The notes under the pieces were generated by a model, which was given only the letters and a program-made list of their open reading frames with translations, was not told the origin of the DNA and did not search any database. The position numbers and the translations under genes were made by a program. A DNA stretch of 64,000 nucleotides from a virus. Taxonomy: Duplodnaviria > Heunggongvirae > Uroviricota > Caudoviricetes. The stretch is from positions 165,318 through 229,317 of IMG/VR virus record IMGVR_UViG_3300014208_000001; one strand, written 5' to 3'. Positions within the stretch are counted from its first letter, which is position 1. Every line of letters begins with the position of its first letter. This document shows positions 4,319 to 58,161 of this stretch, one piece after another.

Positions 4319-4563
4319 CTGATAATCTCCTGTTTGTTCTTGTTGCTGTACTTTATCGCGTCATTAATTTGAGATATTGTCAAAAATGGGTAACATTCTA
4401 ATATTTCATTAACTGATAGTCCCAATATTTTATACTTATAAATCACCCAAACTGGTATACGAGTACCTTTAATTGTGGCATCACCGCCACAGACTCCTTT
4501 AATATGTGTTATTGCCATTTTACGTATCTCAAATTTTTGAAATATAAACAATACCGCAAGCAA
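4291..4563 (-). CDS. DUF433 domain protein
   Basis: GVCGGDATIKGTRIPVWVIYKYKILGLSVNEILECYPFLTISQINDAIKYS matches the DUF433 consensus (G.P.I.GTRI.V...L..G.S.EEIL..YP.LT...I..AL.Y). Confidence 0.5.
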   Translation of the reverse strand: MLAVLFIFQKFEIRKMAITHIKGVCGGDATIKGTRIPVWVIYKYKILGLSVNEILECYPFLTISQINDAIKYSNKNKQEIIRCLKEQDKE

Positions 4564-4576
4564 ATGGAGAGTATTT

Positions 4577-5023
4577 ATGACAAGTTTGTTTTATTCAACA
4601 AACCGCGATAAAGATGATATAATATGGCCGATTATAGATATGTTCGCTGAAAAAGCACGCAAATCAAATGTTACAATATCTGTCGATATAAACGATTCAA
4701 AACATATCGCTATCATATTTGATTACGGTTATAGAATTAAAATATACACCGAATTAGATAATGATGGTACAGTTCTAACACCTGTTTATAGTATTTTAAA
4801 ATCATATACATTATTGAAATTCCAAAATAGCACTTTAAAATTGCGAGCACAAACAAATAGCATATTAGATATCAATGAAAATACTGTTAATAATATAATT
4901 GATGGTTCTTTATTGCATATCGAAGCATGGACTATGTTAGATCAATTACCTATACATGACCTTAAAGAGACAGTAAATTTTATGTTTAATTTATCGAATG
5001 ATATAACACAAGATCCGTTCTAG
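4577..5023 (+). CDS. hypothetical protein
   Basis: A 148-aa plus-strand ORF convergent with the QueC-like gene. Confidence 0.4.
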   Translation: MTSLFYSTNRDKDDIIWPIIDMFAEKARKSNVTISVDINDSKHIAIIFDYGYRIKIYTELDNDGTVLTPVYSILKSYTLLKFQNSTLKLRAQTNSILDINENTVNNIIDGSLLHIEAWTMLDQLPIHDLKETVNFMFNLSNDITQDPF

Positions 5024-5664
5024 ACAATCTCATTATCTATAGCTGTTTTCGCTATACTATTTGTTATACATGGTACACATTTTTTACAATTTTTACCATT
5101 GACTGGGTTTTCGCACCACCAAACTTTATTGTGTAATTTGTATGATTTTAAATTTTTTAATATGTCATATTTATGTTGCCATTCTAATGGTGCTATTAAT
5201 TTACCAGTACCGCCTCTAATTTTTTGCATATTGTCGAACATAGCATATATTTCATGCTTATAATGCCATACGCAATCGCCATGTATATATCCAACATATA
5301 AATCTTCATATGGTCTGAGATAATTCACTGCTATTGGCAACCATATCAGTGGTTGCGATAATCCATTATTTTCGCCTATACATACGTTGCCATTGTCTGA
5401 TGCTATGGTAACTTCGAAATTATGAAAAGTCCATTTAAGTCTATTGGTATATTTTATGAATTTATTACGCGCTAATTTATTTTCTTCTGCCGCGTTAATT
5501 CGGTCATGTATTATTGATATTGTTGATACTGTTTGATGAGGTTCTAATTTATGATTACCTCTTGTAACATATTGATCATATAATAATGTGTATAATAAAT
5601 ATGTTGAATCACAACCACCTGACCATAACACTAGCATTTTGATGCGCTCCTTTGAACGCATCAA
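5020..5664 (-). CDS. queC: QueC-like PP-loop ATPase (7-cyano-7-deazaguanine synthase family)
   Basis: N-terminal SGGxDS PP-loop (VLWSGGCDSTYLL). C-terminal 4-Cys zinc motif CENPVNGKNCKKCVPC, like QueC CxxC..CxxC. Confidence 0.5.
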   Translation of the reverse strand: MMRSKERIKMLVLWSGGCDSTYLLYTLLYDQYVTRGNHKLEPHQTVSTISIIHDRINAAEENKLARNKFIKYTNRLKWTFHNFEVTIASDNGNVCIGENNGLSQPLIWLPIAVNYLRPYEDLYVGYIHGDCVWHYKHEIYAMFDNMQKIRGGTGKLIAPLEWQHKYDILKNLKSYKLHNKVWWCENPVNGKNCKKCVPCITNSIAKTAIDNEIV

Positions 5665-5674
5665 ATACAGTCAA

Positions 5675-6388
5675 TTACGAATTAAAATATTTTTTGATTT
5701 CGTCAACTAACATACTTTCATAAACCACTTTTTCAAATTGTGGTTTAATTTTTGATTTTTCATTCTTTTTGGCGAATCTATCTTTAACTGATTCTTTAAT
5801 GTGCATTATCGCGCTGCGGACGCTCGGCTCTGATACCGCGTCCCAAGTGACGAAAGTATACCCTGGTAACACTCTATATGTTTCGTGGCCATGTGCTTCG
5901 ACCATTTCCATATCACCGACGCCGCGAGATGAGATCCCAACTCTTACTTTATGCTCGAACAATCCTTTGAGCATAGCCCCACATGGCATTCTATCTAGTA
6001 CTTCGGCTTCGCCATAGACTTTGCGGCCTTCTACCCAAATATTTGTGATTAAGTGGCTTATTCTATCCATGTGAATTTTGGCGTCTGCTGGATGGTCTAA
6101 TTCGCCAACTACTGCTCGTTGTGCGACATCTTCTCTGATATCATTGACAGCGGGTACTAATACTTCTTTAGTTGGGTAGACTCTTCCATTAGCGTTTTCT
6201 TTATCACCTTCTTGAAATATACCGGTTATTTTTAGAACATTGGCACCGTTCATACTTTCTTTTATTATTTTGGTTTCTAATGGTTGAAAGACAAATGTAT
6301 CCCTAATCATTTGCATACCAGTTGGTATTTCGCCTGTTTCAGCGATTAATCCACGATTGATAATTATTTGTGATCGTGTTGGAAGCAT
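5675..6388 (-). CDS. prohead core protease, gp21-like
   Basis: NGRVYP...GELDHP...GISSRG motifs reminiscent of T4 gp21 (S77 family). Sits in the head-morphogenesis neighbourhood. Confidence 0.55.
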   Translation of the reverse strand: MLPTRSQIIINRGLIAETGEIPTGMQMIRDTFVFQPLETKIIKESMNGANVLKITGIFQEGDKENANGRVYPTKEVLVPAVNDIREDVAQRAVVGELDHPADAKIHMDRISHLITNIWVEGRKVYGEAEVLDRMPCGAMLKGLFEHKVRVGISSRGVGDMEMVEAHGHETYRVLPGYTFVTWDAVSEPSVRSAIMHIKESVKDRFAKKNEKSKIKPQFEKVVYESMLVDEIKKYFNS

Positions 6389-6430: not shown

Positions 6431-6970
6431 TTAAATTAATGATATTTTCTTTTTAGTACCATTTTTATTAGAGAAAGTCAATTCATCGAATTTATATTCT
6501 TTGCCAATCAATTTATGTAATGTGATATATTTACTACCTAGTCCTGGCTTTACATATGCTAAAGTTAAGTGAGGTTTATACACATATTTATTTGTTACTT
6601 CTGTTGAATCATTAATTAATTTATTTAATTTACATAGATCTTTACTTGTTACTTCTATTTTAACAACATCATTCTCATTAGATTTAAACAATGATATTTT
6701 GCCAAGTTTGATTTTGATGGGTCCGAATTTTTTGACAATATCTGATATGATACTAGAATTACTTGTATGTATTCCGTATAATACAGTTATATGAAAATCA
6801 GTTTCTTTGCCATCCGCTGCTAAATCATCGTCGTCTATATTATCGACTAATTTTTGTAATTCTTTGATTGGATTATCTATTGATATATCTGACATATCAA
6901 CTTGTGTACTACTATAATCATACTTACTCTCGGTTATTGCTTGTAATTTCATACAATATTTTCTCATCAA
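6431..6970 (-). CDS. 2H phosphoesterase superfamily protein (LigT-like)
   Basis: Two H-x-T/S-x motifs, HITVLY and HLTLAY, spaced about 90 aa apart. Confidence 0.45.
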   Translation of the reverse strand: MMRKYCMKLQAITESKYDYSSTQVDMSDISIDNPIKELQKLVDNIDDDDLAADGKETDFHITVLYGIHTSNSSIISDIVKKFGPIKIKLGKISLFKSNENDVVKIEVTSKDLCKLNKLINDSTEVTNKYVYKPHLTLAYVKPGLGSKYITLHKLIGKEYKFDELTFSNKNGTKKKISLI

Positions 6971-8213: not shown

Positions 8214-8248
8214 ACTGTGTGTTTCTTTTGAATATCAATACGTAAACG

Positions 8249-8275
8249 CCAACAGCCCCGAATAGGGGCTGTTGG
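8249..8275 (-). terminator. 11-bp perfect hairpin (ccaacagcccc-gaata-ggggctgttgg) just downstream of the large acidic gene
   Basis: Read directly from the sequence. No clear U-tract on either strand. Confidence 0.35.
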
Positions 8276-8297
8276 GCATTCGAGGTTACAATTTCAA

Positions 8298-11219
8298 TTA
8301 CTTATTTTTCTTGCCTGCTGGCTTATGTTTGGTACCAGTCCCATCATCTTGTTTTGGGCTTGTGCCAATACCTTCGAGTTCTTCTCTCGACCCATCAACT
8401 TTTGATTTTGCCGGGTCTGATCTTTTATCTTCATCAGCGTGTGATGTGTATTTCTTATTGCTTGGATCGGTCATATCACGATCTTCAGCCAATCCATCAT
8501 CTTCATCATCAAAATCAGGCATTTCTGATTCTTCTGAATCATCCTCAATCGGATTCACAGTGTCAACCGGCTTCATATCGCCTTCGACACCTTCAATATC
8601 ACCTTCAACGTCAGCGACGTCACCTTCGATAGCTTCTTCGTCATCTTCAAGCGATTCAACATCACCTTCTAACTCATCGCCTTCAATACCTAATTCATCT
8701 TCACCTTCAAGATCGCCACCGAATGGTTCTTCACCACCCATCATCTCATCTTCTGGTTCTGTAATAACTTGATCACCGTCGCTGTCGACATTGACGTCAC
8801 CGTCGACACTTACACTTATTGTTCCATCACTACTGGCTGTGATTGTGGCCACAGCTTCATCTAGTAATGCACGATCTTCTTCTGTCAGAGGAGCTAATTG
8901 CTCCAAATTTTCTGATAACCAATCACAGAATGGTTGGGCATCAGCTTTAGTGACTCCAGCGGCAGCTAATGCTGACTTTCTTAGCATTTTTGGCACTGGG
9001 ACACTAATATCACCGCTTTCATTCATAACTATGGCGTCGACATTAGCCGATGGAATACCATGGTCTAGAATAAAATTGACACCATTAGCGGTACCAGCAA
9101 CACCATCTTTTTGTCTAGTTGTCCACTGAATATCTTCAGAAGTCAACTTCTCAGACAATTTATTTATTGAAGACCGCTTATAGCCAGCCTTCTTAATTTT
9201 TGGGCTCTTGTATTGGTCTTCAACGACGCCCTCATTGCCAAATTCGGCATCGTTATCACAAGAGCCATCATCGCAATCTTCGTCTTCATCGTCATCATTT
9301 TCCCAAGGTTTCCCGCTCTCCATGAAAGCTTTAGAAACTTGTTCAATGGCGAAGAATGCTTTATTAGCTGGAATTGTCACTCCAACAGCTTCTATAGCCG
9401 CTTTGGATAATTCCGTCAAATTCTCATTTATTGTTGAACCATTTATATCGTTCTCTTCAGCTAATCGACCCATCATGGTGATGATTTTGGTCAATATTTT
9501 CTTATCGGTGATGACTGGCTTGCCATAATCAAACATCTGGCGAGCTTTTGTTTGTTTAAATGCATATGGGTCAAATGATTCGCCTAGTCCTTCGTCATTT
9601 CCAAACTCGGCATTGCCTGTCTGACCGCCACCAGCGCCACCTTGTAGCATATCTGGTCCGCCACCTTCTCCAAGGTCGAATTCACCAGTATCATCGATAC
9701 CCTCATCGTCATCGATATCTAGATCATCGCCAGCGAAATCGTCTTCACCACCGCCGCCACTGGTTCCACCTATTTGAATCAATGGTGAGTTGATCACAAT
9801 TTGTGGTGGCTTATCTTCATGGTCATCACCACCTAAATCTAGATCTTCGCTAGCATCGTCATTGCCCATGTCGATGTCTTTGGCGAAATTGTCGTCACCT
9901 GGGATCGCATCGAAATCTTTGAGATTTTCATTAGCCGACAACTCTTCTTGAATTGTAGCAATTAAATCTTCTGCTTCATAAATCGATGCGTCATCGAATG
10001 CTGGTTCTCTTAATCTTGTGATTAAGTCATTTAATCTCGATGATAGATCATGCGATTCTTTAATTCTTGGCGTTCTATTTTTCAGAACGTCAAGTGTCGT
10101 GGCTAGTGCTTCTGCAGTAACTTCACGGTTCGAGATAGCTTCGAAGATCATTTCAAGGAATCTATCATATGCACCGTTAAAATCAGATGCACCACTTAAT
10201 TTATCGACATTTTCAAGTAACGTGGCATGTTCAGAAGCGATAGCTATTTTCCGCCATTCTCTGACTATTGTGTTCTTATTGACTTTCAAGTTAGTCTTAT
10301 ATAGTAGTGATGCGGTATTTTTAGCCAGATCTTCGTTAAAGCATGCTTTAGTGGCTAGGGCATTTCCGACTAATGTATCGATTTCACTTCTTTTCAGAAG
10401 TGTAAATTCCTCATTTTCTTTCAGGAATGGTCCGACTAATTTAATTGCTTCTTCTATTTTATTGTCATAAATCAACTGTGCGGTTTCGTATATTCTGTTT
10501 TGGAAACCGGTTGATTTATATGCTTCTTTTGCAGCTTCTTTCATGTGTTTGCCAATGAGCTTCTTTGAGGCCCATTTGGTAACTGGCAGCTTGATTGGTT
10601 TTCCATCATTGAATGAGCATGATAGTGTACCACCATGTTCAACAATGACTTTATTATTCAGTGACTCGACGATGTATTGAACGATTTTTTCTTTTGCTTC
10701 TGCGGAGACAGCTTGGCCACCACTGACTTTGATTTTTCTGGCAACGCCATCTCTGGTTCTGACAATACCATGTTCTGGTATTATTTTGCCAGAGAATCTC
10801 TGGCTTGCTATTTTGTCAAATGCCGATGACATACCATTTTGATTATTACTTTCTATGGCATCTATTAATTGTAGACATGAACTTTCGAATAGTGATTGTT
10901 TTTCTTCTTCTATAATTTCTATTTTGACTATATTCTCGATTACGACTCGACCGCCTTTTTCACGGCGGAAATCTGCCTTGTAATAGTCATTTGTGTCAAC
11001 ATCTTCGATGAAGAGGTCACCACCGTACTGTTGATCGCGATTAATCTGCTTTAATCTGAAAGAGGCAAGTTTCCAATTCTTGCCTATTGAAGATCCCATT
11101 TCTGAGATCTTGCTTTCAAACAGAGCTTTTTTAGCGTCAACAGATTCATTGATACTAGCCAGAAACTTACGGGAATCCATTCTAGTTGGATTCACCACCG
11201 TGTTCTGATTCTTAGCCAT
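8298..11219 (-). CDS. large (~974 aa) highly acidic protein with Gly/Asp-rich disordered segments (candidate internal head/prohead core protein)
   Basis: The likely start is the internal Met at 11219, with an AAGGAG RBS 9 nt upstream. The ORF track's start at 11381 overlaps the divergent sigma gene. Has long DDxDLGGDD / EGDxEG runs. Confidence 0.55.
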   Translation of the reverse strand: MAKNQNTVVNPTRMDSRKFLASINESVDAKKALFESKISEMGSSIGKNWKLASFRLKQINRDQQYGGDLFIEDVDTNDYYKADFRREKGGRVVIENIVKIEIIEEEKQSLFESSCLQLIDAIESNNQNGMSSAFDKIASQRFSGKIIPEHGIVRTRDGVARKIKVSGGQAVSAEAKEKIVQYIVESLNNKVIVEHGGTLSCSFNDGKPIKLPVTKWASKKLIGKHMKEAAKEAYKSTGFQNRIYETAQLIYDNKIEEAIKLVGPFLKENEEFTLLKRSEIDTLVGNALATKACFNEDLAKNTASLLYKTNLKVNKNTIVREWRKIAIASEHATLLENVDKLSGASDFNGAYDRFLEMIFEAISNREVTAEALATTLDVLKNRTPRIKESHDLSSRLNDLITRLREPAFDDASIYEAEDLIATIQEELSANENLKDFDAIPGDDNFAKDIDMGNDDASEDLDLGGDDHEDKPPQIVINSPLIQIGGTSGGGGEDDFAGDDLDIDDDEGIDDTGEFDLGEGGGPDMLQGGAGGGQTGNAEFGNDEGLGESFDPYAFKQTKARQMFDYGKPVITDKKILTKIITMMGRLAEENDINGSTINENLTELSKAAIEAVGVTIPANKAFFAIEQVSKAFMESGKPWENDDDEDEDCDDGSCDNDAEFGNEGVVEDQYKSPKIKKAGYKRSSINKLSEKLTSEDIQWTTRQKDGVAGTANGVNFILDHGIPSANVDAIVMNESGDISVPVPKMLRKSALAAAGVTKADAQPFCDWLSENLEQLAPLTEEDRALLDEAVATITASSDGTISVSVDGDVNVDSDGDQVITEPEDEMMGGEEPFGGDLEGEDELGIEGDELEGDVESLEDDEEAIEGDVADVEGDIEGVEGDMKPVDTVNPIEDDSEESEMPDFDDEDDGLAEDRDMTDPSNKKYTSHADEDKRSDPAKSKVDGSREELEGIGTSPKQDDGTGTKHKPAGKKNK

Positions 11220-11266
11220 CTCTATCGGACTCCTTGTTAAACTAACATGACTATTAATAATTTTGA

Positions 11267-12316
11267 ATGGAACGTACTCTAATGAATCCATCATACATAA
11301 TTTATGGTGATTACAATCGTAATAACGGGTCAATGCTACTACGTAAAATACGTTCCTATGCCAGATTTGAAACAGACCCATATTATTTGGCTAAAGTAAA
11401 ACAAGCAGTAGCAGAACGAGTATATTTGGACGATGACTCAACTTTCGACGCGATAATAAAGTATCAAAATGGTGATATATCACAATTAGACCCATTGTTC
11501 AAAGCATATCATTTATTAATATTAAAATTATCAGCGGGCGCATTACGAATATACAAAAAACGAGGCCAAATAGACGAAATACTATCATTATCATATTCTA
11601 CATTCTTAACATGCTTAAAAAAATACACAGTATCTGAAAAATTAAGCAGATTTTCAACATATCTATCAACAGCAATATTACATAATATAATACATTATAT
11701 ACCATTTGAACACACCAGAATACGTTATAGAATACAACACATATCAGCTTTGGATAATATAATATTAAATGATTTATCTATAAATCCAAATCAATCTATA
11801 CACGATATATTACCAGATGATACTATTAAGAAATATTGGAAACATATTAATTATTTGACAATTGTAAACGTCTACAAACAAAATCACATACCAATTAAAG
11901 TGTCAGACCAACCATTAATGCATATTGATATTGATGAGTGCTTTAAAAATTTAAATGATAGACAAAAAAGAATATTAACACGCAGATTAAATGGAGATAT
12001 ATTGCATGATATAGGTATTGATGAAAATATCACCAGAGAAAGAGTGCGTCAAATAGAGGCACAAGCATTATCAAAAATCAAAAAAATTATCGAAAGCCAA
12101 AATAGATTACCAATTAAACCGATTAAATTACCTGAAAAACAACAAGTCATACTGTTAACATATGATGAAGCTAAAAAATTTATAAAATTACATTATATAA
12201 AATCTAGAGCCGCATATATACGCTTTGCAAGAATATGTGTACAATTACCTTTAAACCCACGTTCAACTTATAAGCATTCATGGAAAGGTTGGAAATCATT
12301 CTTATCTAGGAGGTAA
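11267..12316 (+). CDS. sigma-70 family RNA polymerase sigma factor with C-terminal extension
   Basis: Region 4.2 HTH LNDRQKRILTRRLNGDILHDIGIDENITRERVRQIEAQALSKIKK. Region 2-like YKKRGQIDEILSLSYSTFLTCLKKY. Confidence 0.6.
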   Translation: MERTLMNPSYIIYGDYNRNNGSMLLRKIRSYARFETDPYYLAKVKQAVAERVYLDDDSTFDAIIKYQNGDISQLDPLFKAYHLLILKLSAGALRIYKKRGQIDEILSLSYSTFLTCLKKYTVSEKLSRFSTYLSTAILHNIIHYIPFEHTRIRYRIQHISALDNIILNDLSINPNQSIHDILPDDTIKKYWKHINYLTIVNVYKQNHIPIKVSDQPLMHIDIDECFKNLNDRQKRILTRRLNGDILHDIGIDENITRERVRQIEAQALSKIKKIIESQNRLPIKPIKLPEKQQVILLTYDEAKKFIKLHYIKSRAAYIRFARICVQLPLNPRSTYKHSWKGWKSFLSRR

Positions 12317-14152
12317 ATCATATATAGTTATCTCTGAATCATCAGCATTTTCATAATTTGCTAATTCTTCTGATATAAGCGCTTTAGCGATATTTTTAGC
12401 GCCATTAGCTTCTTCAATATCAATAGTTGATTCAATCAGCACTAATGGGTCAGAATTAGTACCATAATTCGAATCATTAATATTATTACCCTTAGACAAT
12501 GCATCTAATTCATTTATAGTCATAAAATAATCGAATCCACTATTCAGTTCGCGTTCATTTAATTTCTCTAATATCTTCTTGCTACGTAATCTTTTATCTA
12601 TACGCATCTCATTGATTACACGTTTTTCACTTGCGTAATCATATCCTTCTAACGGTGGTTCAGTATCTTCTTCAGCATCAGGTGCTAATAAATCATTATC
12701 TTGCCCTGGAATTTCGGGTGTTTCATCATCCATACCAAGATCTAATCCTCCTAAACCGCCTCCACCGCCACTGGGTGCCATAGATTCGGCTTCAACATCT
12801 TTTAAATCTTCGATTTCATCCGGGGACAAGTCAGTGAAGTGTGTGACAATCCAATCTTTGGGGAACCATCCAAGATCTTTAAGAGTCGCCATGACATCAG
12901 CTCTTGTTTGCCATGTCTCAATTCGATATAATTCTTCGAGAGCTGATGTGGCTGTTAATGTGATTTCAAATCCTTTTAGATCTTCAACAGAATAACCACG
13001 TAGTGCTAAATGAACCAGCGCGACTTTAGTTAATCCTTTTGCCACTTCTCTCTGAATCCATTGTACTGCTTTTGCAAACTCAGCGTGGCTCTGTGATAAT
13101 GATTTTTCATTCTGTTCACCAGCGCCTTCTCCTAGTCCAACTCTGGCAAATGGAATCTTAAGAGGTGCTATCATTTTCTTTTTGAAATATTCGATATCCG
13201 CTATTTGATCTAAATTTTCGGCTCCTGGTAACGAATCAACATCAGGGCCAGTACCATCAGCTCTTACAGGTAAAAAATAATCATCTTCTTGAATAAGAGG
13301 TGAATATCGCTCGTCAAATGTACCGGTCGTTGGGTTATAGAATCTCTGTCTTTTCATAGTCCTTGCAATAGCTGCTATATATTCAGGTATTTGATTAGTT
13401 GGTATATTACCAACTGGTATTTTGAATTTCCTTCTCTCAGGTGCTCTAGTAATACGATATATCAATGCACTATCTTCCATTAATCGCAATTGTTTAAATG
13501 CTTTACGTCCACCATCTAATATACTAATACCATATGGGTGATATATATTTTCAAATGAGGTTAATCTAGTATGCATCACTTGCCATGGATGCATGAATAT
13601 TGGCTCTGGGTATATTGGATCTTGATAATAAAATCCAACCAAATCACCAAATCTTGTTTCAATTCTTGTAAAATTATAGATATTCATAAATCTTAAACTT
13701 GATACACATGTTCTGTTTTCATTTGGTATTATTTCAGCGCCAAAATCGCCATATTTACATAAATATCTAATTGTGGGTCTACAATGTGTGTCCCACTGTA
13801 GAGTGTTAAAAAATAATTCTTCTAATTCTCTTTTTAATCGTTTATTTCTTGCTCTTATTATTATTGTGTGCTTGCGTTCTGAATCAACTAAACTAGCTTC
13901 GTCAGCATATAAATCTAATGCTAAACTAATTTCACCTGTTTGTGCCATTAGTTCATAATCTCTATACCTTTCTAATCTATTTATTTGAACATTGGTTTGA
14001 TCTAGAATGGATTGTTGATCCAAATCTAAATTGCCAGTATGGGCAATTCGATCAAGTTGAGTTTGGTCTTGTAATGTTCTTTCTGATTGAAATATATTAT
14101 GATTTTTAATCAGAGTTCGAACACGATCAAACACAAACCAATTGCTGGGCAT
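12302..14152 (-). CDS. portal vertex protein, gp20-like
   Basis: LIYRITRAPERR...DSLPGAENLDQI aligns with T4 gp20 VIYRITRAPDRR...DTLPGADNTGNM. AGGAG RBS. Confidence 0.9.
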   Translation of the reverse strand: MPSNWFVFDRVRTLIKNHNIFQSERTLQDQTQLDRIAHTGNLDLDQQSILDQTNVQINRLERYRDYELMAQTGEISLALDLYADEASLVDSERKHTIIIRARNKRLKRELEELFFNTLQWDTHCRPTIRYLCKYGDFGAEIIPNENRTCVSSLRFMNIYNFTRIETRFGDLVGFYYQDPIYPEPIFMHPWQVMHTRLTSFENIYHPYGISILDGGRKAFKQLRLMEDSALIYRITRAPERRKFKIPVGNIPTNQIPEYIAAIARTMKRQRFYNPTTGTFDERYSPLIQEDDYFLPVRADGTGPDVDSLPGAENLDQIADIEYFKKKMIAPLKIPFARVGLGEGAGEQNEKSLSQSHAEFAKAVQWIQREVAKGLTKVALVHLALRGYSVEDLKGFEITLTATSALEELYRIETWQTRADVMATLKDLGWFPKDWIVTHFTDLSPDEIEDLKDVEAESMAPSGGGGGLGGLDLGMDDETPEIPGQDNDLLAPDAEEDTEPPLEGYDYASEKRVINEMRIDKRLRSKKILEKLNERELNSGFDYFMTINELDALSKGNNINDSNYGTNSDPLVLIESTIDIEEANGAKNIAKALISEELANYENADDSEITIYDLPPR

Positions 14153-14190
14153 AAATAACTCCTCAAAATATATTTACAGGATGATCAATT

Positions 14191-14730
14191 ATGAATAGAT
14201 TCATCAAATTGTCTGATTTAGTAAAATTTATCGCTGATATTATAAAATACTTATCACGTAAAAAACCAATCCCCCCAGAACCAAAACCAATTCCAACCCC
14301 GGAACCACCTCCAAAGCCAACCCCAATTCCACCTCCAGAGCCAACCCCAGAACCCACGCCTAAAACACCAACCGAATTAGCGATTGATCAATTATTATCA
14401 TCACACAATAAACTACGGCAGACACCATTAACCATTAATACTAAATTAACGGCAGCAGCTCAAAAACATGCCGAATGGATGGCGTTTAATAATACATTAT
14501 CGCATGTCGGTGATAAAAGATCACAGCCATGGACAAGAACATCATGGGAAGGCTATGAAAATGGATTCGTTGGTGAAAATATCGCATTCGCTTACTCATT
14601 AGACCAAGTGATGCCAATGTGGTTACAATCACAAGGACATAGAAGAAATATTTTAGATTCTAATTATAAAAACATAGGAATAGGTATTAAAAATAATTAC
14701 TATTGTGTTGTATTTGGAGGTGGTGATTAA
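14191..14730 (+). CDS. CAP/SCP (PR-1, YkwD-like) domain protein with Pro/Thr/Glu-rich linker
   Basis: HN..R, GENIAFAYS and GHRRNIL..NYKNIGIGI motifs, plus a PEPKPIPTPEPPPKPTP linker. Confidence 0.6.
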   Translation: MNRFIKLSDLVKFIADIIKYLSRKKPIPPEPKPIPTPEPPPKPTPIPPPEPTPEPTPKTPTELAIDQLLSSHNKLRQTPLTINTKLTAAAQKHAEWMAFNNTLSHVGDKRSQPWTRTSWEGYENGFVGENIAFAYSLDQVMPMWLQSQGHRRNILDSNYKNIGIGIKNNYYCVVFGGGD

Positions 14731-15149
14731 TTAGAAGTCCATTCAGATTCTATTTTTTTATTAGACAATTGATTAAATTGATTAAATTCATCCTCACATA
14801 AATTAAATTCTATATGCCTTTTATCAATATATCTAACATTGGACATCACAACCATATCAACCATACAATAATATAATACATACGTGCCATTTAAATCTTT
14901 ACCAGACAATTCACAATATATTGATTGAGTCGGCTTAAAATTTTTTATCAATCTATTCTTTATTTCTTCTCCGCAATTTTCACAACAATCGATACTTTTA
15001 ATAATACGTTCTAATAATATTGATCTTATTTCTGGCTTATGATTTACAACATTTACTTTTCTAAAATCCATTGAATAATATGTAAATTGCGATTTAACCT
15101 CTATTTTACACAAGTCACATACTATTCCATCTTTTGATTTATTAAGCAT
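14727..15149 (-). CDS. Cys-rich hypothetical protein (CxxC ... CCxxC)
   Basis: A 140-aa ORF coupled to the terminase stop. Confidence 0.4.
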   Translation of the reverse strand: MLNKSKDGIVCDLCKIEVKSQFTYYSMDFRKVNVVNHKPEIRSILLERIIKSIDCCENCGEEIKNRLIKNFKPTQSIYCELSGKDLNGTYVLYYCMVDMVVMSNVRYIDKRHIEFNLCEDEFNQFNQLSNKKIESEWTSN

Positions 15150-18100
15150 TATTCACCTTTTCGTTTAAAATAATATTTTGGTGGTGTTACAATAGGACCA
15201 TTTTTAGACATTGGTATAGCACCTAACTGATAAGTAAATGCATCTAATTGACGCTGAATATTTTGTTCAGGCATTTCATCTGGCGTGCCAACAAATGGTA
15301 AAAATGGATTACCAGTCGCATTTACTAATTGTTTATGGTATTGAACCATTTGATCATCAGTAAAGATAGTAGGCCCAGCCAAACTAGTAAAATCAGAAGA
15401 TGATAACACCGGCCCAGCAGAAACCGATGAAAGTGCAAACGAATCATTAATAGCCACCAACGCTAACGCAAAAGCCATAACAAGATCGTCAAAATTATTA
15501 GCACCTTCTTCAGCTTCAGTCTTTCCAGTATCCCTACCAGATTTGTCTCTTTTTCTAACATACGTATTAAATTGCTTCAATAATCTCCTGCTATAAACTT
15601 TATACCCAGCATCATCTTCGTCTCTAACATAATCTATTAATAACCTGTTCAAAATCGGTTTAGATGCCATAGTAGTAAAGAAACCATATCTATCAATTTT
15701 CATAGCTCGCTGTGTACTACTCGATGGTCTAGGTTTATCATTGATGTCCTTTTTGCGCCATATATTAGGATAATTAAATTCATGTCGTAGAGCATCTATT
15801 AAATTATCACCACCATTATTGCGTTCTAATACTAACATAGCATTGTTATAATATCTTCCCAAATAATCAACAAATCGTAAAAATTGTTTTGGTAAGCATC
15901 TTACCATCATTTCAGCTACTTGTTCCATTGTTATTGCATCTAATATTTCTAATGCATGATAATCTTTACCTTTACCAGTTGCAAAGTCGACACCCATAAC
16001 ATATATATGAGGTGGTTCACCTGGTGATATTATTTGATTATTTCGCATTTTTGCTGGTTTTGCTTGTATCGGATGCTCCCACACCCACAAACCAGATTCA
16101 GATTCTTGCTCATTGAAACTTAATTCTTCTGATTCTCCTGTGCTTGGATTTGTGTATAATATTGTATTAGTGACTCTATCTGGTTCTTTCATAGTTGTAG
16201 CTAATTTAGTTAATACTGATCTAGTTATAACTGTATTACCAGAGCCAATAAATGATGCTAAAACTTCCTGGTTAAATTTCCATCCTTCACCTTTTTCTTG
16301 CAGACCGCGCCATTGTTCTTCTAACCATGGTGACCAATATGGACCATATTTATCTTCTTCTTCTTTAGTGGTACATTTTCTCAATCCGTCTCTTGGTGCT
16401 ATCCGTACTAATTCTCTACTTAAACTATCTCTATATTCAATATTCCAATCCATATCCCACCAATTAACACATATCGGATTAAATACATTATCGCCAGCTT
16501 CAGCTTCTGTCCACGTGCCCCAATACCAGTTGCCGACTCCATTCGTATTCGCGTGTACAGTGCAGTCACCGATAAAAGTGTGTGTGTTTGGTAATGTGAA
16601 ATCATATACTTCCGCTTCAGAATCTTCTAATGATTTAACCTCATTGAACCAATCATATTCTAATAATTTAATAAGAGAATCATAAGCGTCATTACCTTCA
16701 TATGAAATCTTACTCATAAACGAAGCGAGACGATCTTTAGTTATCCTTGATCTTGATCCATAAAGAACATTTGGGGCTAATCCCAATTTAGTCATTTTAG
16801 CGATTGAAAGATCAGTTGTGTCTTTTAATTGTTTTAAAAGATTCTTAACAACTGGTGGCATTAACTCAGACCAAACTGACGTCTTATTTTTTTGTAAAGC
16901 TTGTTTTCTACCCAAATCAAAACCAATAAGATCATAAAACAAATTTGTAAAATTGTTAGAAACATATAATCGATATGATTCACGAGTATCATGTGTAGTG
17001 GTCTCACCATTATTACGTTTAAATGACGTCATACCAGGCGGCGATATTTCTAAATATGTATGTATTCCATAATTAAATAATAACATCCTAACTTGTTTAA
17101 TAAGTTTTTTAGATGTAGAAGTATAACAAACTTGCCCTTTTCTCGTTAAAGCAGCACCATCACCATCAAACAATCCTCTAAGAAAATTCCTTATTATTGG
17201 TTCAGAACATTGTAATAATCTTTTTGGTATAGTTTTAAATGGTGCTATTGTACATTCAACACCAAGATATTTAAGAAATCTAACAAACATAGGTGATGAA
17301 CATACCGTAACATAATCTTGCCCTTTTCTTCCTCTATTCCAATTAATATTGCCCCAAGATTCGCATCGATCTAGAACTTTAGAATCACCACACGACAATA
17401 CCACTTCAGCAGTAATTTTACCATTTTTTCTAATTGTTTCTCTTACATGACCTTCAGCTATAATAACACCAAGCATATAAGCAATATCTTCATCCATCTT
17501 TTTTATTTGAAAAATTGGTGAGTTTAAATTATCATCTCTATAACTCTTATTACGATCTTCATAATTTAATATATCATTATTTCCGAAAACCATTTGCCCA
17601 GCTTTAACTGGCAGGAAGTCTCCGATCTGTAAATCTTGAATATATTTATTATTTATAGTCCCATTAGATGACACAACTGGCAATTTGTGTAATAATGATG
17701 CTTCGAATTCATAGCAACAAGATGTTTTAACAATTTTAGTTGCTTCTTTTGGTCTTTTATAAAATTTAGTAGCTGGTTCTAAACCATCAATCCCAACAAT
17801 ATCTGGCCCCTTATAATCAGTATGATAATAACCATCATCAAAGCCATCGTATTCATGAGGTGCTAAATCTTGTATTTCACATAAACCGTTTGCAGTATTA
17901 ATTAAAGTATCTGGTGCCACACATGTACTAATTACTATTGTACTACCACCGTGAGTCATGGTTGAATAACCGGCTGCCCACATCACATCCATATCTTGAA
18001 TAAATGCTGCTTCGTCTATTATATTCAATGATGATGCATTTGATCGTAAAACATCTGGGTGTGATGTCATAGATTTTATAACTGTACCATTAGTAAATGC

Positions 18101-19516
18101 TATTGCGTGTTCATTCCATCCTTTTCTGCCTGTGGTGCCTATACGTGGTGCCCATATATCTTGCATCCACTCTGGTAAGTTATTAAATAAGAACGCCACA
18201 TTCTCTTTCAGAAATCCTTTGGCGTCTTCATCTCTACGAGAAACGATTAATATTGTTTTATTTGGGTTGAACATCGCAAACCATAATGCGAATGCCCCAG
18301 ATACTTTCGATATACCACAGTTATGAACAACAGCCCCATCAACAATATAATTATTATATGGTGGAACATTTAAATCATAAACACATCCATCACCTTTAAC
18401 ACGTTTAATAGATTTAATATCACCTTTTTCTCTATTAAAAAAGAATCCCTTAGTTATTTGATTACGTGGCTTTTTACCATAAATACCAATATATTGTACA
18501 AATCTATTAAAATCATCTTTACCAATTATACGTAATTTTGGTATTGTTGTGGTCGTGCGTGGATAATATACAGCATTAATATTAAATCTAGTTAATAATT
18601 GCTTCAGCTGATGAAGCATTGTAACCGATTCTAATCCTATTCCAGCTTCATTACAATTGCCGCCAGAATACCATCCATCACCGGCAAACATCCTATTAAT
18701 TAATACTGCTATTGATTTATTGTCCCATTTAAACACATCGCTCGGTATTGTTTTATCAGCTTTTATCTTATTAAGTATATTATATCGATCTGCCCAACAC
18801 GTAGCAGCAACACATGTAGTTTGCAATCTATAATTCTTAGTCGATTCTGGTTTAAATCCACTCTCATGTTTTCGTATTGTTAATTGTAATCCGAATCTAT
18901 TTTTAAAACATTTTTGATATTCTAATAAATATTTCCAACATGAATTATTAAATGTGACAAATCTGCCAGTTGATCCATCAGTCAATAAGTATCCTAATAA
19001 TATTGGATCATTATGATTAGGAGTATATCCATATCTTTCAATATCATTGATTTCTATTAACTTCTTATTGCCTATCAAATCACCAGCTTTTATATATCCA
19101 TTATTTGTTAAATACTCATGGTCATATGTGGCTATTGATCTATGTCCAGATTTGGATCGCACTTCTACAAGATTATCAGAAATACCATTATTATAAACAT
19201 CATTTACTGGTACTGCTTCTATGGCGTTGGTATGATAATTTAATGTATAAACCAAATCACCTTTATTAATCTGATCTATGCGTTTTGGACCATTTGGTCC
19301 CCAAACCATTTGGTCACCAGCAAAACACTGTCTACATTTTTTAAATATATTAAATCTATGCTGTTTAAATGCATTCAACGCCATTTTCTGATAGCTGAAT
19401 AATTTAAACGGTAATATACCAGCAGACGGATGCTTTACTTTACCAAAATTCTCTAAAAACCACGATATCGATTGTCTAGATCGTAAAATAACTTGTTTTT
19501 GAGTATCATTCATCAA
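15149..19516 (-). CDS. terminase large subunit, gp17-like, interrupted by two inteins
   Basis: The extein sequence FKKCRQ/CGISKVSGAF...IIDEAAF...IVIST/TNGVGNWYW parallels T4 gp17 SRQLGKTT...IYIDECAF...IIITTTPNGLNHFYDIW. The nuclease half HALEILD matches gp17 HALHIID. Confidence 0.9.
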   Translation of the reverse strand: MMNDTQKQVILRSRQSISWFLENFGKVKHPSAGILPFKLFSYQKMALNAFKQHRFNIFKKCRQCFAGDQMVWGPNGPKRIDQINKGDLVYTLNYHTNAIEAVPVNDVYNNGISDNLVEVRSKSGHRSIATYDHEYLTNNGYIKAGDLIGNKKLIEINDIERYGYTPNHNDPILLGYLLTDGSTGRFVTFNNSCWKYLLEYQKCFKNRFGLQLTIRKHESGFKPESTKNYRLQTTCVAATCWADRYNILNKIKADKTIPSDVFKWDNKSIAVLINRMFAGDGWYSGGNCNEAGIGLESVTMLHQLKQLLTRFNINAVYYPRTTTTIPKLRIIGKDDFNRFVQYIGIYGKKPRNQITKGFFFNREKGDIKSIKRVKGDGCVYDLNVPPYNNYIVDGAVVHNCGISKVSGAFALWFAMFNPNKTILIVSRRDEDAKGFLKENVAFLFNNLPEWMQDIWAPRIGTTGRKGWNEHAIAFTNGTVIKSMTSHPDVLRSNASSLNIIDEAAFIQDMDVMWAAGYSTMTHGGSTIVISTCVAPDTLINTANGLCEIQDLAPHEYDGFDDGYYHTDYKGPDIVGIDGLEPATKFYKRPKEATKIVKTSCCYEFEASLLHKLPVVSSNGTINNKYIQDLQIGDFLPVKAGQMVFGNNDILNYEDRNKSYRDDNLNSPIFQIKKMDEDIAYMLGVIIAEGHVRETIRKNGKITAEVVLSCGDSKVLDRCESWGNINWNRGRKGQDYVTVCSSPMFVRFLKYLGVECTIAPFKTIPKRLLQCSEPIIRNFLRGLFDGDGAALTRKGQVCYTSTSKKLIKQVRMLLFNYGIHTYLEISPPGMTSFKRNNGETTTHDTRESYRLYVSNNFTNLFYDLIGFDLGRKQALQKNKTSVWSELMPPVVKNLLKQLKDTTDLSIAKMTKLGLAPNVLYGSRSRITKDRLASFMSKISYEGNDAYDSLIKLLEYDWFNEVKSLEDSEAEVYDFTLPNTHTFIGDCTVHANTNGVGNWYWGTWTEAEAGDNVFNPICVNWWDMDWNIEYRDSLSRELVRIAPRDGLRKCTTKEEEDKYGPYWSPWLEEQWRGLQEKGEGWKFNQEVLASFIGSGNTVITRSVLTKLATTMKEPDRVTNTILYTNPSTGESEELSFNEQESESGLWVWEHPIQAKPAKMRNNQIISPGEPPHIYVMGVDFATGKGKDYHALEILDAITMEQVAEMMVRCLPKQFLRFVDYLGRYYNNAMLVLERNNGGDNLIDALRHEFNYPNIWRKKDINDKPRPSSSTQRAMKIDRYGFFTTMASKPILNRLLIDYVRDEDDAGYKVYSRRLLKQFNTYVRKRDKSGRDTGKTEAEEGANNFDDLVMAFALALVAINDSFALSSVSAGPVLSSSDFTSLAGPTIFTDDQMVQYHKQLVNATGNPFLPFVGTPDEMPEQNIQRQLDAFTYQLGAIPMSKNGPIVTPPKYYFKRKGE
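16547..17923 (-). mobile_element. intein 2 (459 aa, LAGLIDADG) in terminase before the T(P)NG motif
   Basis: Starts CVAPDTLI and ends TVHAN, followed by Thr. Has MLGVIIAEGHV and LRGLFDGDGAA motifs. Confidence 0.75.
18320..19327 (-). mobile_element. intein 1 (336 aa, LAGLIDADG homing endonuclease) in terminase Walker A P-loop
   Basis: Starts CFAGDQMVWG and ends VVHN, followed by Cys. Has LLGYLLTDGS and FAGDGWYS dodecapeptides. Codon boundaries were verified on the DNA. Confidence 0.8.
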
Positions 19517-22008: not shown

Positions 22009-22099
22009 TGATCGATCCCCCTCAAATTAGTTCTTTGTTAACACCCGATTTTAAACACGCTTCCGAAAATAACGTATTAAATCGATGTAAAAATATATT

Positions 22100-26112: not shown

Positions 26113-26340
26113 TCAAAATCCTTAATTAAAATCACGTCAAATTTGTAAATACGACACAAATGTTAATATCAATATGGGTTGGGCAAATAAGCAATAATAC
26201 TAATATAGATCGCCACTATTATTATTGATGGGTATATACGTATATCAAAATTCATTTCTGCTAATCGCATTGTTACGAATATTATCGCTGCACATATTAT
26301 ATTTATTTGATATCGTTTTATCAATTATGACCTTATAAAA

Positions 26341-35514: not shown

Positions 35515-35898
35515 TTACAAGCCGTTAAATGGCGACGTATGATCATTAGCTAATTTATATTCCGCTAATTTATATGCCGCAAATTGATCTAATGCTTTAT
35601 AACATGTTACAATTGCCGAGTTCACAACATTTTCAATAACGTCATTGTCTATTAATTGGATTGTATATTCTATAATTTTTGAATATGTATATGTGCCCAT
35701 TGGCGAACTATACATAATTATGATATCTGCTCCTGATATTTCTATTTGTACCATGAATAAGTGATGTGTATATAATAATATATGCATATCAGAACCTAAT
35801 ACTTCAACTATATCGAATCTATAGTGTGATTTTTTGTCTAATTCTTCTTTTATTATTTTAATTATATTGTTATGCAAGCTCACATTTGTCGCCGTCAC
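35515..35898 (-). CDS. hypothetical protein
   Basis: A 127-aa ORF overlapping the RNR 3' end by 29 nt. Confidence 0.35.
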   Translation of the reverse strand: MTATNVSLHNNIIKIIKEELDKKSHYRFDIVEVLGSDMHILLYTHHLFMVQIEISGADIIIMYSSPMGTYTYSKIIEYTIQLIDNDVIENVVNSAIVTCYKALDQFAAYKLAEYKLANDHTSPFNGL

Positions 35899-38800
35899 AG
35901 AATTTGCTGCCTATAGCTTCATTTATAAAAGATGAAAAATCTAATTGTTTGATTTTGCTATTATATTCGATGACTTCTTCTCTTGTACATGGTTCATATG
36001 GCGCTTGCTGATAACCGTGATCGGTGTGAGGAAGAAAACTTATCCCTTTTAATTTGTCTTCGAATACTTCACAAACTTCAGCTAATGTGTGGGCTTCTTC
36101 TTTTTTAAATTTTATTGTGCAACTAACTTGATTGTCTGCCCAATATGCTTGATAATCAGATGCTAACGCCATTTGACTGTACATCGAAACTTCTTCGACT
36201 GGTTTAACACGTTCATCGGAAATCGCGAATTTAGCGACCATTGTGTTTGGGTCACCAATCATTGGTTCGATATGATATCCTGCATCTTTCAAAATATCGA
36301 CTAAAATTGAATCTTTTGATAATCTCATGCGACGCCAATAATTTTTAGCTTCCGGGTAGTGAATACCAGGTGTTGCGCCAGCAACTAGACTGACCGATCC
36401 ACTTGGTTTGACCGATGTCACTTTTATAGATCCGTTCACGCATAGCCATTCACTATAAATGTTATCCCAATGTTTAATTTCTTTATAACCATTATCACAG
36501 AAATCGCGTAATAATTTTCGACGGCCAAATTTTGCTATAGCTTGAACGATTCCACTTTGTGATAAGCCTATTCTTCTATTTCTTAACATAACTTGGTTTG
36601 TGCGAGGGTTATGTGTTGGTAATAATGTAACTGTTTTGCCATATAAGTATGCATATTTAAGAGTACGCATATAATCTTCAGATGATTCATGATTGGCTGG
36701 GAAAGTTTCTACTAATGTGCATAATTCATGGTCTTCTAACGTTTGTTCGCTACATTGGCCTATTTGATATCCATTAATTACTATTTGGTTATTAATCGGC
36801 TCTGTTAAACAAAACGTATCTTGTTTGCCAATATATTCAATCGATTTCACTTTAACATACTTACCTGTGTCTGAATTATTTGATCCACAATGCTTTGATA
36901 GCCATTCTCTAGCATTTATTGATTTCCAATCTTGAATAAAACCAATTTGATCTAAAAATGCTGTTACTTGTTTCATACCAGAAATTATTAATTCCCAATT
37001 TGCCTTACGATTATATAGTTTTCGACCACCATTCCCATCATTCATAAGTTGCTTGCCAGCAGACTTTCTAAATTGCACAGTGCTAGCGATATTAAATTGG
37101 TTCAATAATAATCTGCAGTCAGACAGCAAATCACGATTAGATTGATTGATTCTAACCGAAATCGTGCCGTTATCAGATATTAAAACGCACCCATCGGCGG
37201 ACGCTAACCCTTTGATAAATGCACTAATAGTTTCCCTATCGCCATTCCATATACTAGATGGAATAGCATGCTTATTTCCGTTAACAATCCCATCGTTTTT
37301 CAACATTCTACCAAGAACATTAGATCCAACTCTGACTTCATCATGATCAAAATGTTCTTGATCTCTATGCCACCCGGCATATGCCGGCGACTGCACAGAT
37401 GATTTATTATGAATATAATATAATTCAGTTAACAATGCAGTGATACGTGGTAAAACATTTTCGACATCAGATTCATAACATGTACATTCGGCTCTGACTT
37501 GCCCATCTGATTTTGGCGATAGAGAGCCATCACCAATGCACCACCCTGCTAATTCAGCATACACAGTATTACGATATGTGCCAAAATGAACTGTCTGATT
37601 CAATGGTACCATATCACCAACTGAGAGTTCATTTAAATGAACTCTATTTTCATTGTATCTCACTCTTTTCTTACCATTTATTCTAATAGATTTCTTATTT
37701 AATTTTATAAAATTATGATTGGCTGTGGCATCAACATATGAATTATCATCAAATATCACACGCCACAAATCGATATTTTGGCCTGTTCTGTATACTTTGG
37801 TCGCTTCAACAACGCCGTTTCTGTTTACAACATTTTGACTTCCATATTTTAATATTGGATTATCAGTTAATCCATTATATTCTTGCATACCTGATTGAAG
37901 CCATAAGTCAATTAATTGGATATATCCATTAGCAGTTAATAGCTTGTTTGATCCGGCTAAACACGGATTACTTCCGACAGCCCTACCATCAACGCCAGGA
38001 TTAAATCCATCTATCATTCTACCATAATCTCGCATATTATCTAACCATATAAAACCTGGCTCACCATTTACAGCTATGCTAGCTGCATATTTAGTATAAT
38101 CCATTCCAACATGAGCAACTATCGAATTATTCGACGCCCATCTATGCGCATTTAAATAATTCCATGTTTTAACACAATAATCTAATTTATCGCCTTTAAT
38201 ACACGTATCTTCAAAATCACCATACACAGCAACATATCTATCAATATCATATAATTTAGTCGTTACTTTATAAAAGTCAGCAACTTCATCTTTTGTAAAC
38301 CCTGCAACTGGGTTTTTCATATTTATATAGTCATTGTCGTCATATTCTCCGAATGTGATTTGTGCGGTTCTACGCACGTTGCCAGCGACAACACATTTGC
38401 CAATAATATTCATTAAATCAGTTATATCAACACTCGTCAAATACCGATCAATTCGCGATTCAAGTAATTGTCTTATAGAATTATGCAACGATATTAATAT
38501 TTGCGCACCACTAGCTTTACCGCCAAATCCTTTAATATCTGACCCAGCCGGCCTAATATGATCATATTCAAATTCCATATATCCTAAATTAGGATATTTT
38601 GTATATGATTCAATAAGCAATCGTAACGATTCTACCCATGATTCACGCGAATCACCAATTACAAATGTATTTGCGGTATCATCATATGGAGAGCGTACTA
38701 ATAATTTATTCGCCCCTTTGGTATCGAATCCGACACCAACGCCGAGCATTGACATATCCATCATAAAGCAGAATGGTTCTGCTGGTTCAGTATCTATATT

Positions 38801-58067: not shown

Positions 58068-58083
58068 TTCACTTCCTATAAAA

Positions 58084-58106
58084 ACGGGGGAGTATTACTC
58101 CCCCGT
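58084..58106 (-). terminator. intrinsic terminator hairpin (acgggggag-tatta-ctcccccgt) followed on the minus strand by TTTTATAGG
   Basis: Lies between tube paralogs 1 and 2. Confidence 0.5.
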
Positions 58107-58161
58107 CAATTGACTTGCCCATTATGCACATCACTTTAAAAGGAGCGGTGCAGCAAGTGTA

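Follow-up and report, generated by a model that had tools for sequence, protein, structure and literature searches.

A predicted sigma-70-family factor with a C-terminal INT_rpt unit, encoded within the head-gene block of a jumbo phage

What is the role of a sigma-70-like gene that lies on the opposite strand in the middle of the head-morphogenesis genes of a tailed phage? The question is raised by a stretch of 64,000 nucleotides from IMG/VR record IMGVR_UViG_3300014208_000001 (positions 165,318 to 229,317 of that record; this whole stretch is referred to as the window, and all positions are given in its coordinates). A preliminary description of the window had pointed out a plus-strand open reading frame (ORF) of 349 amino acids (aa) at 11267..12316, had read it as a true sigma-70-family factor, and had considered such a factor to be out of place in a T4-like background. 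The ORF was found exactly there, and it does lie inside the head-morphogenesis block, with genes for a large acidic protein, the portal, a gp21-type protease and the terminase around it. We conclude that its product is a member of the sigma-70 family with a sigma2 domain, a reduced sigma3-like segment and a sigma4 domain, and we put a probability of about 0.7 on its serving a 355-kb jumbo myovirus as an initiation factor of the sigma-70 family by the mechanism proposed below, its most likely function being reprogramming of the host RNA polymerase (RNAP) through sigma replacement. Residue numbers follow the 349-aa frame (from the ATG at 11267) throughout.

Membership of the sigma-70 family follows from profile, alignment and structure searches. 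The Pfam Sigma70_r4 model (PF04545) scored 36 bits over aa 226-273 (gathering cutoff 24.1, E 4.9e-9), and the region 4.2 helix-turn-helix (HTH) seen in the preliminary description is present as ITRERVRQIEAQALSKIKK at aa 255-273. The PHROG family phrog_351 ('RNA polymerase sigma factor') aligned with aa 58-291 at 1e-12, TIGR02937 aligned aa 75-274 to model positions 4-164 of 165, the best-scoring NCBIfam models were RpoH, RpoS and RpoD, and IMG names the 349-aa form a sigma-70-family factor. A profile of the protein and its single relative (P0051, see below) was compared by hhalign with a profile of ten canonical sigmas, which gave 192 collinear columns spanning regions 2.1-4.2 (aa 86-279) with 98.2% probability and E 6e-14, while BLASTP alignments to remote metagenomic sigmas carrying PF04542 extended over aa 56-273. 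An AlphaFold model based on a 13-sequence alignment had a predicted local distance difference test (pLDDT) score of 81-95 at aa 50-148 and of 79-97 at aa 220-278; when this model was used for Foldseek searches, the top 50 matches in the PDB were all sigma factors aligned across 250-330 columns, led by sigma S (5ipl_F, E 6.6e-7), SigB (8x6g_H) and SigA, and the top matches in BFVD were all phage sigma factors. As the homology is collinear from sigma2 to sigma4, a generic LuxR-type HTH protein, to which the preliminary description would have retreated if no Sigma70 profile had matched, was rejected.

The individual regions differ strongly in how well they are conserved. The sigma2-like domain (11432..11716, plus strand, aa ~56-150, delimited by AlphaFold, hhalign, BLASTP and phmmer) contains YQNGD at aa 66-70 (regions 1.2/2.1), DEILSLSYSTFLTCLKKY (region 2.2) and FSTYLSTAILHNIIHYI (regions 2.3/2.4), the latter including FSTY at aa 129-132, which aligns with region 2.3 of canonical sigmas; YQNGD and FSTY both fall within the BLASTP alignments, and bear out the region-2-like residues of the preliminary description. 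Where canonical sigmas read FSTYATWWIRQAITRAI in regions 2.3/2.4, Trp-Trp has been replaced by Thr-Ala, Arg-Gln by Leu-His and Thr-Arg by Ile-His, and these regions are divergent in the relative as well, whereas both proteins, with an overall identity of only 29%, have kept the FSTY core and the helices of regions 2.1/2.2. With the -10-reading residues of region 2.3/2.4 gone, a different -10 specificity is expected. The reduced sigma3-like region and region-3.2-type linker that follow (11717..11923, plus strand, aa 151-219) were modelled with low confidence, and neither Pfam Sigma70 region 3 nor regions 1.1/1.2 were detected by profile in the protein; this segment includes the signature NPNQSIHDIL..D.IKK.W (aa 173-191, 11783-11839), which is invariant between the two proteins and aligns to region 3.0/3.1 of canonical sigmas.

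The sigma4 domain (11924..12100, plus strand, aa 220-278) is the most readily recognised part, with a PF04545 match, pLDDT 79-97, region 4.1 as LNDRQKRILTRRLNGD and the region 4.2 HTH as ILHDIGIDENITRERVRQIEAQALSKIKK, and the PDB entries that it matches by sequence are region 4 of sigma S, sigma A and sigma 70. In its region 4.2, the recognition helix has the sequence ITRERVRQIEAQAL, compared with VTRERIRQIEAKAL in primary sigmas, and retains the -35-reading residues T-R-E-R-x-R-Q of RpoD and RpoS (ITRERVRQIEA vs VTRERIRQIEA). Residues R584, E585, R588 and Q589 of Escherichia coli sigma 70, which contact the -35 hexamer, all have conserved equivalents, and judging by what is known of sigma 70 structure and function, the protein is predicted to read a TTGACA-like -35 element.

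Beyond region 4.2 the protein continues for about 71 aa (279-349), a little less than the ~80 aa first assigned to this extension, and ends as described in ...LPLNPRSTYKHSWKGWKSFLSRR. The extension starts with a Pro/Lys-rich linker of ~17 aa, NRLPIKPIKLPEKQQVI (12101..12151, plus strand, aa 279-295, pLDDT <50), followed by a folded unit at aa 296-347 with a two-residue tail at aa 348-349 (12152..12313 together, plus strand, the tail being 12308-12313). An exhaustive phmmer search of 1.84 billion representative sequences gave 561 matches, nearly all of them to aa 296-347 alone, and the proteins concerned usually contain this segment repeatedly, in as many as 14 stretches. The matched array proteins belong to Pfam PF14882 INT_rpt ('integrase repeat unit'), and one of them is named 'integrase repeat-containing protein' by NCBI. 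The single unit of the sigma-like protein shares the invariant P38, P41, W49, W52 and F55 of the repeat alignment (the P..P, W..W and F columns) and was modelled with pLDDT 90; hmmscan of this unit against Pfam gave no match, and a local repeat hidden Markov model scored it at 65 bits, a score to be read with the knowledge that the protein is itself among the sequences from which this model was built. The C-terminal extension is one very basic copy of INT_rpt; its net charge is +11 across 54 aa, whereas 26 other units average +2.5.

To our knowledge INT_rpt is a widespread repeat, found in hundreds of families, without a known function. Its partner domains are ResIII/DEAD helicases, Mrr-type nucleases and DUF559 nucleases and, according to the Pfam name, integrases, and since the arrays are attached to helicases, nucleases and integrases, a nucleic-acid-binding accessory role can be argued for the repeat. 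The copy described here is the only one in the 64-kb window. No second protein combining sigma4 with INT_rpt was present among the 269 retrieved, and a dedicated search for such fusions returned one plain sigma and no fusion, with a sensitivity limited by the word index used.

The sigma family proper consists of only two members among 1.8 billion representatives, i.e. the protein described here and P0051, a protein of 433 aa which is ~29-30% identical to it and carries Sigma70_r4 together with a different, unrelated and unassigned domain of ~160 aa at its C-terminus. P0051 is encoded on the genome of a related phage (L003) in the same slot, with a large acidic protein on the minus strand, the sigma on the plus strand and a T4-type portal on the minus strand, the latter two in convergent overlap. 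Searches for further relatives were negative in IMG/VR; the JGI metagenome scan gave only bacterial dnaG-rpoD operons and no true relative, GenBank phages gave region-4 matches only, megablast of 12 kb found no match, and the best cellular matches covered only region 4 with E ~1e-9 or weaker.

Protein identities between the window and the related phage are 77% for the portal, 63-64% for the acidic protein, 68-89% for the exteins of the large terminase (TerL), 59% for a CAP-domain protein, and 51% and 48% for ORFs of 140 and 462 aa respectively, compared with 29% for the sigma. By these figures no gene of the head block, otherwise well conserved, diverges nearly as fast as the sigma, whose C-terminal module has also been swapped; this suggests diversifying pressure on promoter specificity or adaptation to the host RNAP. 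The nearest isolated phages as judged by the portal, Microcystis phage Mel-JY01 and Flavobacterium phage immuto (~31% identity), have no sigma gene in their TerL-portal-protease(-capsid) block, whose genes follow one another without interruption and in one direction; the sigma gene is therefore a lineage-specific insertion.

The gene itself probably starts at ATG 11282 rather than 11267, which gives a plus-strand gene of 344 aa (11282..12316, stop TAA at 12314-12316), so that the 349-aa ORF exists in the DNA and is likely to overstate the protein by a few residues. Gene callers use ATG 11282, and the counterpart of ATG 11267 in the related phage reads ATG GAT TAA in the DNA alignment and is thus non-coding, which favours the downstream start. 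An identical 344-aa protein (P0001, starting at ATG 11282) is encoded on metagenomic contigs of ~355.7-355.9 kb, from which we take the genome to be that of a jumbo phage of ~355 kb, the window representing 18% of it. The GC content at third codon positions (GC3) of the sigma gene is 0.19, compared with 0.19-0.20 for the portal, TerL and helicase genes; the gene is thus compositionally native, and recent horizontal acquisition was rejected on this basis.

Upstream of the sigma gene, a divergent intergenic region of 62 bp (11220..11281) contains a block, TTGTTAAACTAACATGACTATTAATAATTTTGAATGGA, that is ~90% conserved in the related phage, and the DNA 5' of the gene remains ~90% identical up to TTGAATGGA, after which the similarity collapses. 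A consensus scan of this region yielded a candidate plus-strand sigma-70-like promoter, TTGTTA-N16-AATAAT (11234-11261), which is a consensus match only, of a kind that AT-rich sequence yields many times by chance. The divergent neighbour is the acidic protein (8298..11219, minus strand, isoelectric point 4.4), which has long D/E/G-rich tracts and is of 973 rather than 974 aa with its true start at ATG 11219, preceded by an AAGGAG ribosome-binding site; the divergent arrangement itself was as first described. No family could be assigned to this 973-aa protein, which is probably a member of the head module, such as a scaffold or internal head protein. Its N-terminal ~470 aa are well conserved, and its D/E/G-rich low-complexity tracts differ in length between the two phages.

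At its other end the sigma gene converges with the gene for the T4-type portal of the gp20 family (12302..14152, minus strand, Pfam Portal_T4 6e-69), with which it shares a 15-bp overlap (12302..12316) that contains no terminator; the related phage has the same convergent arrangement with an overlap of 26 bp. The group is flanked by the genes for the gp21-type prohead protease (5675..6388) and the intein-containing large terminase (15149..19516), and there were no recognisable RNA polymerase genes in the window.

On these observations we base the following proposal. The sigma gene would be transcribed from its own promoter within the conserved 62-bp block, opposite to the structural genes, and would probably be expressed at a different and earlier time than the head genes, as it runs head-on into the 3' end of the portal gene with no terminator in between. 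The protein would then replace the host sigma on the host core RNAP, with sigma2 placed on the beta' clamp helices and sigma4 on the beta flap, and the resulting holoenzyme would be directed to phage-specific promoters with a TTGACA-like -35 and a non-canonical -10 element. Alpha C-terminal domains and activators normally bind just upstream of the -35 element, where the C-terminus of sigma 70 meets the alpha C-terminal domain and upstream DNA. The INT_rpt unit, placed ~17 residues behind the -35 recognition helix, would most likely contact the DNA just upstream of -35, and this contact could add affinity or specificity and so compensate for a degenerate -10-reading surface.

Several findings weigh against this proposal. 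Of the two Sigma70 profiles suggested for checking the protein, region 4 scored above its cutoff, but Sigma70_r2 (PF04542) gave no match with the full protein, nor, up to E 10, when only the first 219 aa were scanned, and the TIGR02937 score of 37.9 bits is below the cutoff of 42.9. Of the residues for melting and recognition of the -10 element beyond the FSTY core none is kept, with the F and Y of FSTY itself retained, and in region 2.2 the polar residues through which sigma 70 touches beta' have been replaced; with the contact residues of regions 2.2 and 2.3/2.4 gone, core binding and promoter melting are assumed.

The motif search that the preliminary description had called for gave no shared motif in the intergenic regions of the window that survived controls, and no promoter class could be assigned. 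In a k-mer enrichment of 29 upstream regions TTTACGT was present in 5 (0.1 expected), yet its total in the window (11 vs 8.9) is that of chance and its flanks have no consistent -35/-10 geometry, and hence it was rejected. The AAATATA/GTAAATATA boxes precede the portal gene in both phages and also the protease and a tail gene; being only weakly enriched near gene starts (5/33 vs ~2 expected) they failed the controls. A third candidate, AATTTTGAR, found at divergent junctions 10-25 nt ahead of the first start codons, was rejected as a promoter, as it probably reflects the context of ribosome-binding sites. There was no enrichment in the window of the T4 late box TATAAATA (13 sites vs 19.3 expected), and none of its sites fell within the 60 nt preceding the start of a gene on the same strand. 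Finally, a scan of 45 ORFs revealed no member of a gp55, gp33 or anti-sigma family; with 64 of the 355 kb inspected, other sigmas or a gp55/gp33 system may be encoded elsewhere in the genome.

The losses in region 2 would also fit a protein that is derived from a sigma factor without functioning as one, i.e. a DNA-binding repressor or activator, or a non-productive 'dead sigma' on the host core RNAP. The replacement of key residues in regions 2.2, 2.3 and 2.4 and the missing Pfam region 2 match are what one would expect of such a protein, and proteins combining Sigma70_r4 with other HTH domains do exist under the name 'sigma factor-like HTH DNA-binding protein' (P0229 and related). We nevertheless consider this improbable, since the entire sigma2 domain has been retained, with pLDDT 81-95 and collinear with canonical sigmas, and the FSTY core and region 2.1/2.2 helices have been kept between two members of only 29% identity; the functional phage sigmas SPO1 gp28 and T4 gp55 are comparably divergent. 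Alternatively, the gene may be an insertion that serves host manipulation and does not drive phage gene expression, a 'moron' or selfish gene that mimics, for instance, an alternative sigma of the host as do the SigF/G homologues of Bacillus phages, and phage sigmas that alter host programmes have been documented (10.1101/2021.11.12.468384). The uninterrupted, co-directional TerL-portal-protease block of the nearest isolates would be consistent with a moron, as would the location on the opposite strand, which the gene shares with other isolated low-GC plus-strand genes. There is no close cellular homologue, however, and with cellular matches confined to region 4 (E ~1e-9 or weaker) no specific host sigma is mimicked; moreover the native GC3, and the conservation of the position in a phage whose other proteins are only 48-89% identical, make this explanation very doubtful.

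A further alternative leaves the sigma function intact and concerns the tail alone: INT_rpt may be a protein-protein tether or an autoinhibitory module rather than a DNA reader, either docking to a DNA-bound phage factor, as the gp55 and gp33 tails of T4 do on the sliding clamp, or gating the protein in the manner of the ECF41/ECF42 extensions. C-terminal extensions of extracytoplasmic function (ECF) sigmas do act as regulators (PMC8999054), and the unrelated module of P0051 at the same position implies that the slot behind sigma4 tolerates varied functions. Arrays of INT_rpt are also found in apparently secreted repeat proteins (P0024, P0103), for which a purely DNA-binding role would be ill suited. 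On the other hand the partner domains of the repeat are mostly DNA enzymes, the unit on the sigma is exceptionally basic (+11 vs a mean of +2.5), and the 64-kb window yielded neither a clamp nor a partner protein, and thus we regard a tether or gate as unlikely. DNA contact by INT_rpt upstream of the -35 element stays part of the mechanism that we prefer.

This reasoning can be taken one step further to a more speculative proposal, which we put forward tentatively and think unlikely to hold: the locus may be a fast-evolving 'specificity cassette', a conserved slot flanked by the scaffold-like and portal genes that is occupied by a diverged promoter-reading core and an exchangeable module behind sigma4, with INT_rpt reading the DNA upstream of -35. 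If true, this would be the first sigma-70-family factor with a built-in DNA-binding domain resembling an UP-element or activator function, and it would provide the first function for the orphan INT_rpt repeat. As far as could be checked, the fusion of a sigma with INT_rpt, the extreme divergence of region 2.3/2.4 and the cassette-like hyper-divergence with C-terminal exchange have not been described elsewhere. The fusion gives a testable hypothesis for INT_rpt function, i.e. DNA binding next to the -35 element, and neither it nor the fast divergence alters current understanding unless experimentally confirmed.

The remainder of the window has features of its own. There are six plus-strand genes, all of them isolated low-GC insertions (26-37%, mostly <30%), with the rest coded on the minus strand, and the plus-strand genes each form a short divergent junction (1381-1416, 4519-4576, 11220-11281, 14153-14190 and 22009-22099). 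One of these genes (14191-14730, plus strand) is divergent from the portal gene and encodes a CAP/SCP-domain protein (PF00188) with a Pro-rich PEPT-repeat N-terminus, whose homologue in the related phage is also on the plus strand and is 59% identical in the CAP domain. The large terminase (15149-19516, minus strand) is of 1455 aa compared with 654 aa for the intein-free homologue in the related phage, due to insertions at aa ~65-399 and ~532-976, the exteins otherwise being 68-89% identical; as there are two insertions and the protein has Pfam Intein_splicing and LAGLIDADG_3 on record, it seems to contain two inteins, of which one or both include a homing endonuclease. Another intein insertion may be present in the ribonucleotide reductase (35870-39256, minus strand, 1128 aa), which is matched by phrog_367 in two separate stretches.

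Genes for a QueC-like protein of the 7-deazaguanine pathway (5020-5664, minus strand) and a 2'-5' RNA-ligase-like protein (6431-6970, minus strand) are located among the head genes beside the gp21-type protease, while a PspA/IM30-family protein (26911-27645, minus strand) and two paralogous SPFH/Band-7 proteins (29414-31012 and 31230-32768, minus strand) form a membrane-remodelling or stress set that is unusual for a phage, in a stretch (26911-32768) with a GC content of 0.40-0.41 compared with 0.34 for the window. The minus-strand intergenic gaps 8214-8297, 26113-26168 and 58068-58110 contain strong GC-rich hairpins followed by T-runs, which resemble intrinsic terminators separating minus-strand operons; among them are CAACAGCCCCTATTCGGGGCTGTTG after the acidic protein gene, ATGAACCACACCACCAATCGGTGGTGTGGTTCAT and GGGGGAGTAATACTCCCCC.

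How does this protein compare with known systems? A phage sigma is a classic route to takeover of the host RNA polymerase, and one in a jumbo phage is to be expected. Sigma factors, of a minimal as well as an RpoD-like type, are encoded by every group 2 jumbo phage, a group characterised by a gp23-type capsid and the lack of an RNAP of its own, often alongside gp33 orthologues (Iyer et al. 2021, PMC7824862), and BFVD lists many phage sigma-70-type factors including those of Tenacibaculum jumbo phage PTm1 and Synechococcus phage ACG-2014f. A sigma with a region 4 is for this reason expected and not the anomaly that the preliminary description had taken it for, and the T4-like background assumed there did not hold either, in that this is a 355-kb jumbo phage with a portal only 25-32% identical to that of any isolate; it is only distantly T4-like and not T4-type in the strict sense. 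The protein resembles the RpoD-like sigmas of group 2 jumbo phages (PTm1, and the RpoD/RpoS proteins of Vibrio phage YC/GR28A) in having sigma2 and sigma4 and in its occurrence in a large myovirus that depends on host core RNAP, and like the protein of Vibrio phage YC it has a shortened turn between regions 4.1 and 4.2 (RR.NGD.L..IG); several of the jumbo-phage sigmas also extend beyond region 4. It differs from them in that identity is at most ~35% and confined to region 4, in having no Pfam region 2 or 3 match, and in its C-terminal INT_rpt, which was seen in no other sigma compared.

With T4 the phage shares the principle of a phage-encoded sigma replacement (gp55/gp33/gp45 in T4), as well as a gp20-type portal, a gp21-type protease and T4-type baseplate and sheath genes. 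The T4 late system uses gp55 (sigma2-like only), gp33 (a flap binder without DNA contact) and the sliding clamp on -10-only TATAAATA promoters, whereas here a single-chain sigma has a full sigma4 with intact -35-reading residues, and the locus does not qualify as a T4-type late system. Among bacterial sigmas, those of groups 2 and 3 (RpoS, RpoH, SigB/F/G) gave the best sequence and structure matches, and their region 4.2 TRER(V/I)RQIEA helix is identical; unlike them, the protein has FSTYLSTAILHNIIHYI for FSTYATWWIRQAITRAI, a reduced region 3, no regions 1.1/1.2 by profile and an extra C-terminal domain. Such an additional domain fused after sigma4 is also seen in ECF41, ECF42, ECF44 and other ECF sigmas, where the extensions are SnoaL-like, tetratricopeptide repeat or Cys-rich sensor and regulatory domains (PMC8999054), but in contrast to the two-domain ECF sigmas the core is closest to groups 1-3, a sigma3-like segment has been kept, the extension is a basic INT_rpt of 52 aa, and the sub-cutoff TIGR02937 score places the protein outside the ECF group by profile. 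The closest comparison for the extension is with the INT_rpt array proteins, since its 52 aa fit the pattern F.EA...V..L.IKS..EY......LP..P...YK..W.GW..FLG; while those proteins have 3-14 tandem units, usually with a helicase, nuclease or integrase, here a single basic unit is attached to a sigma factor.

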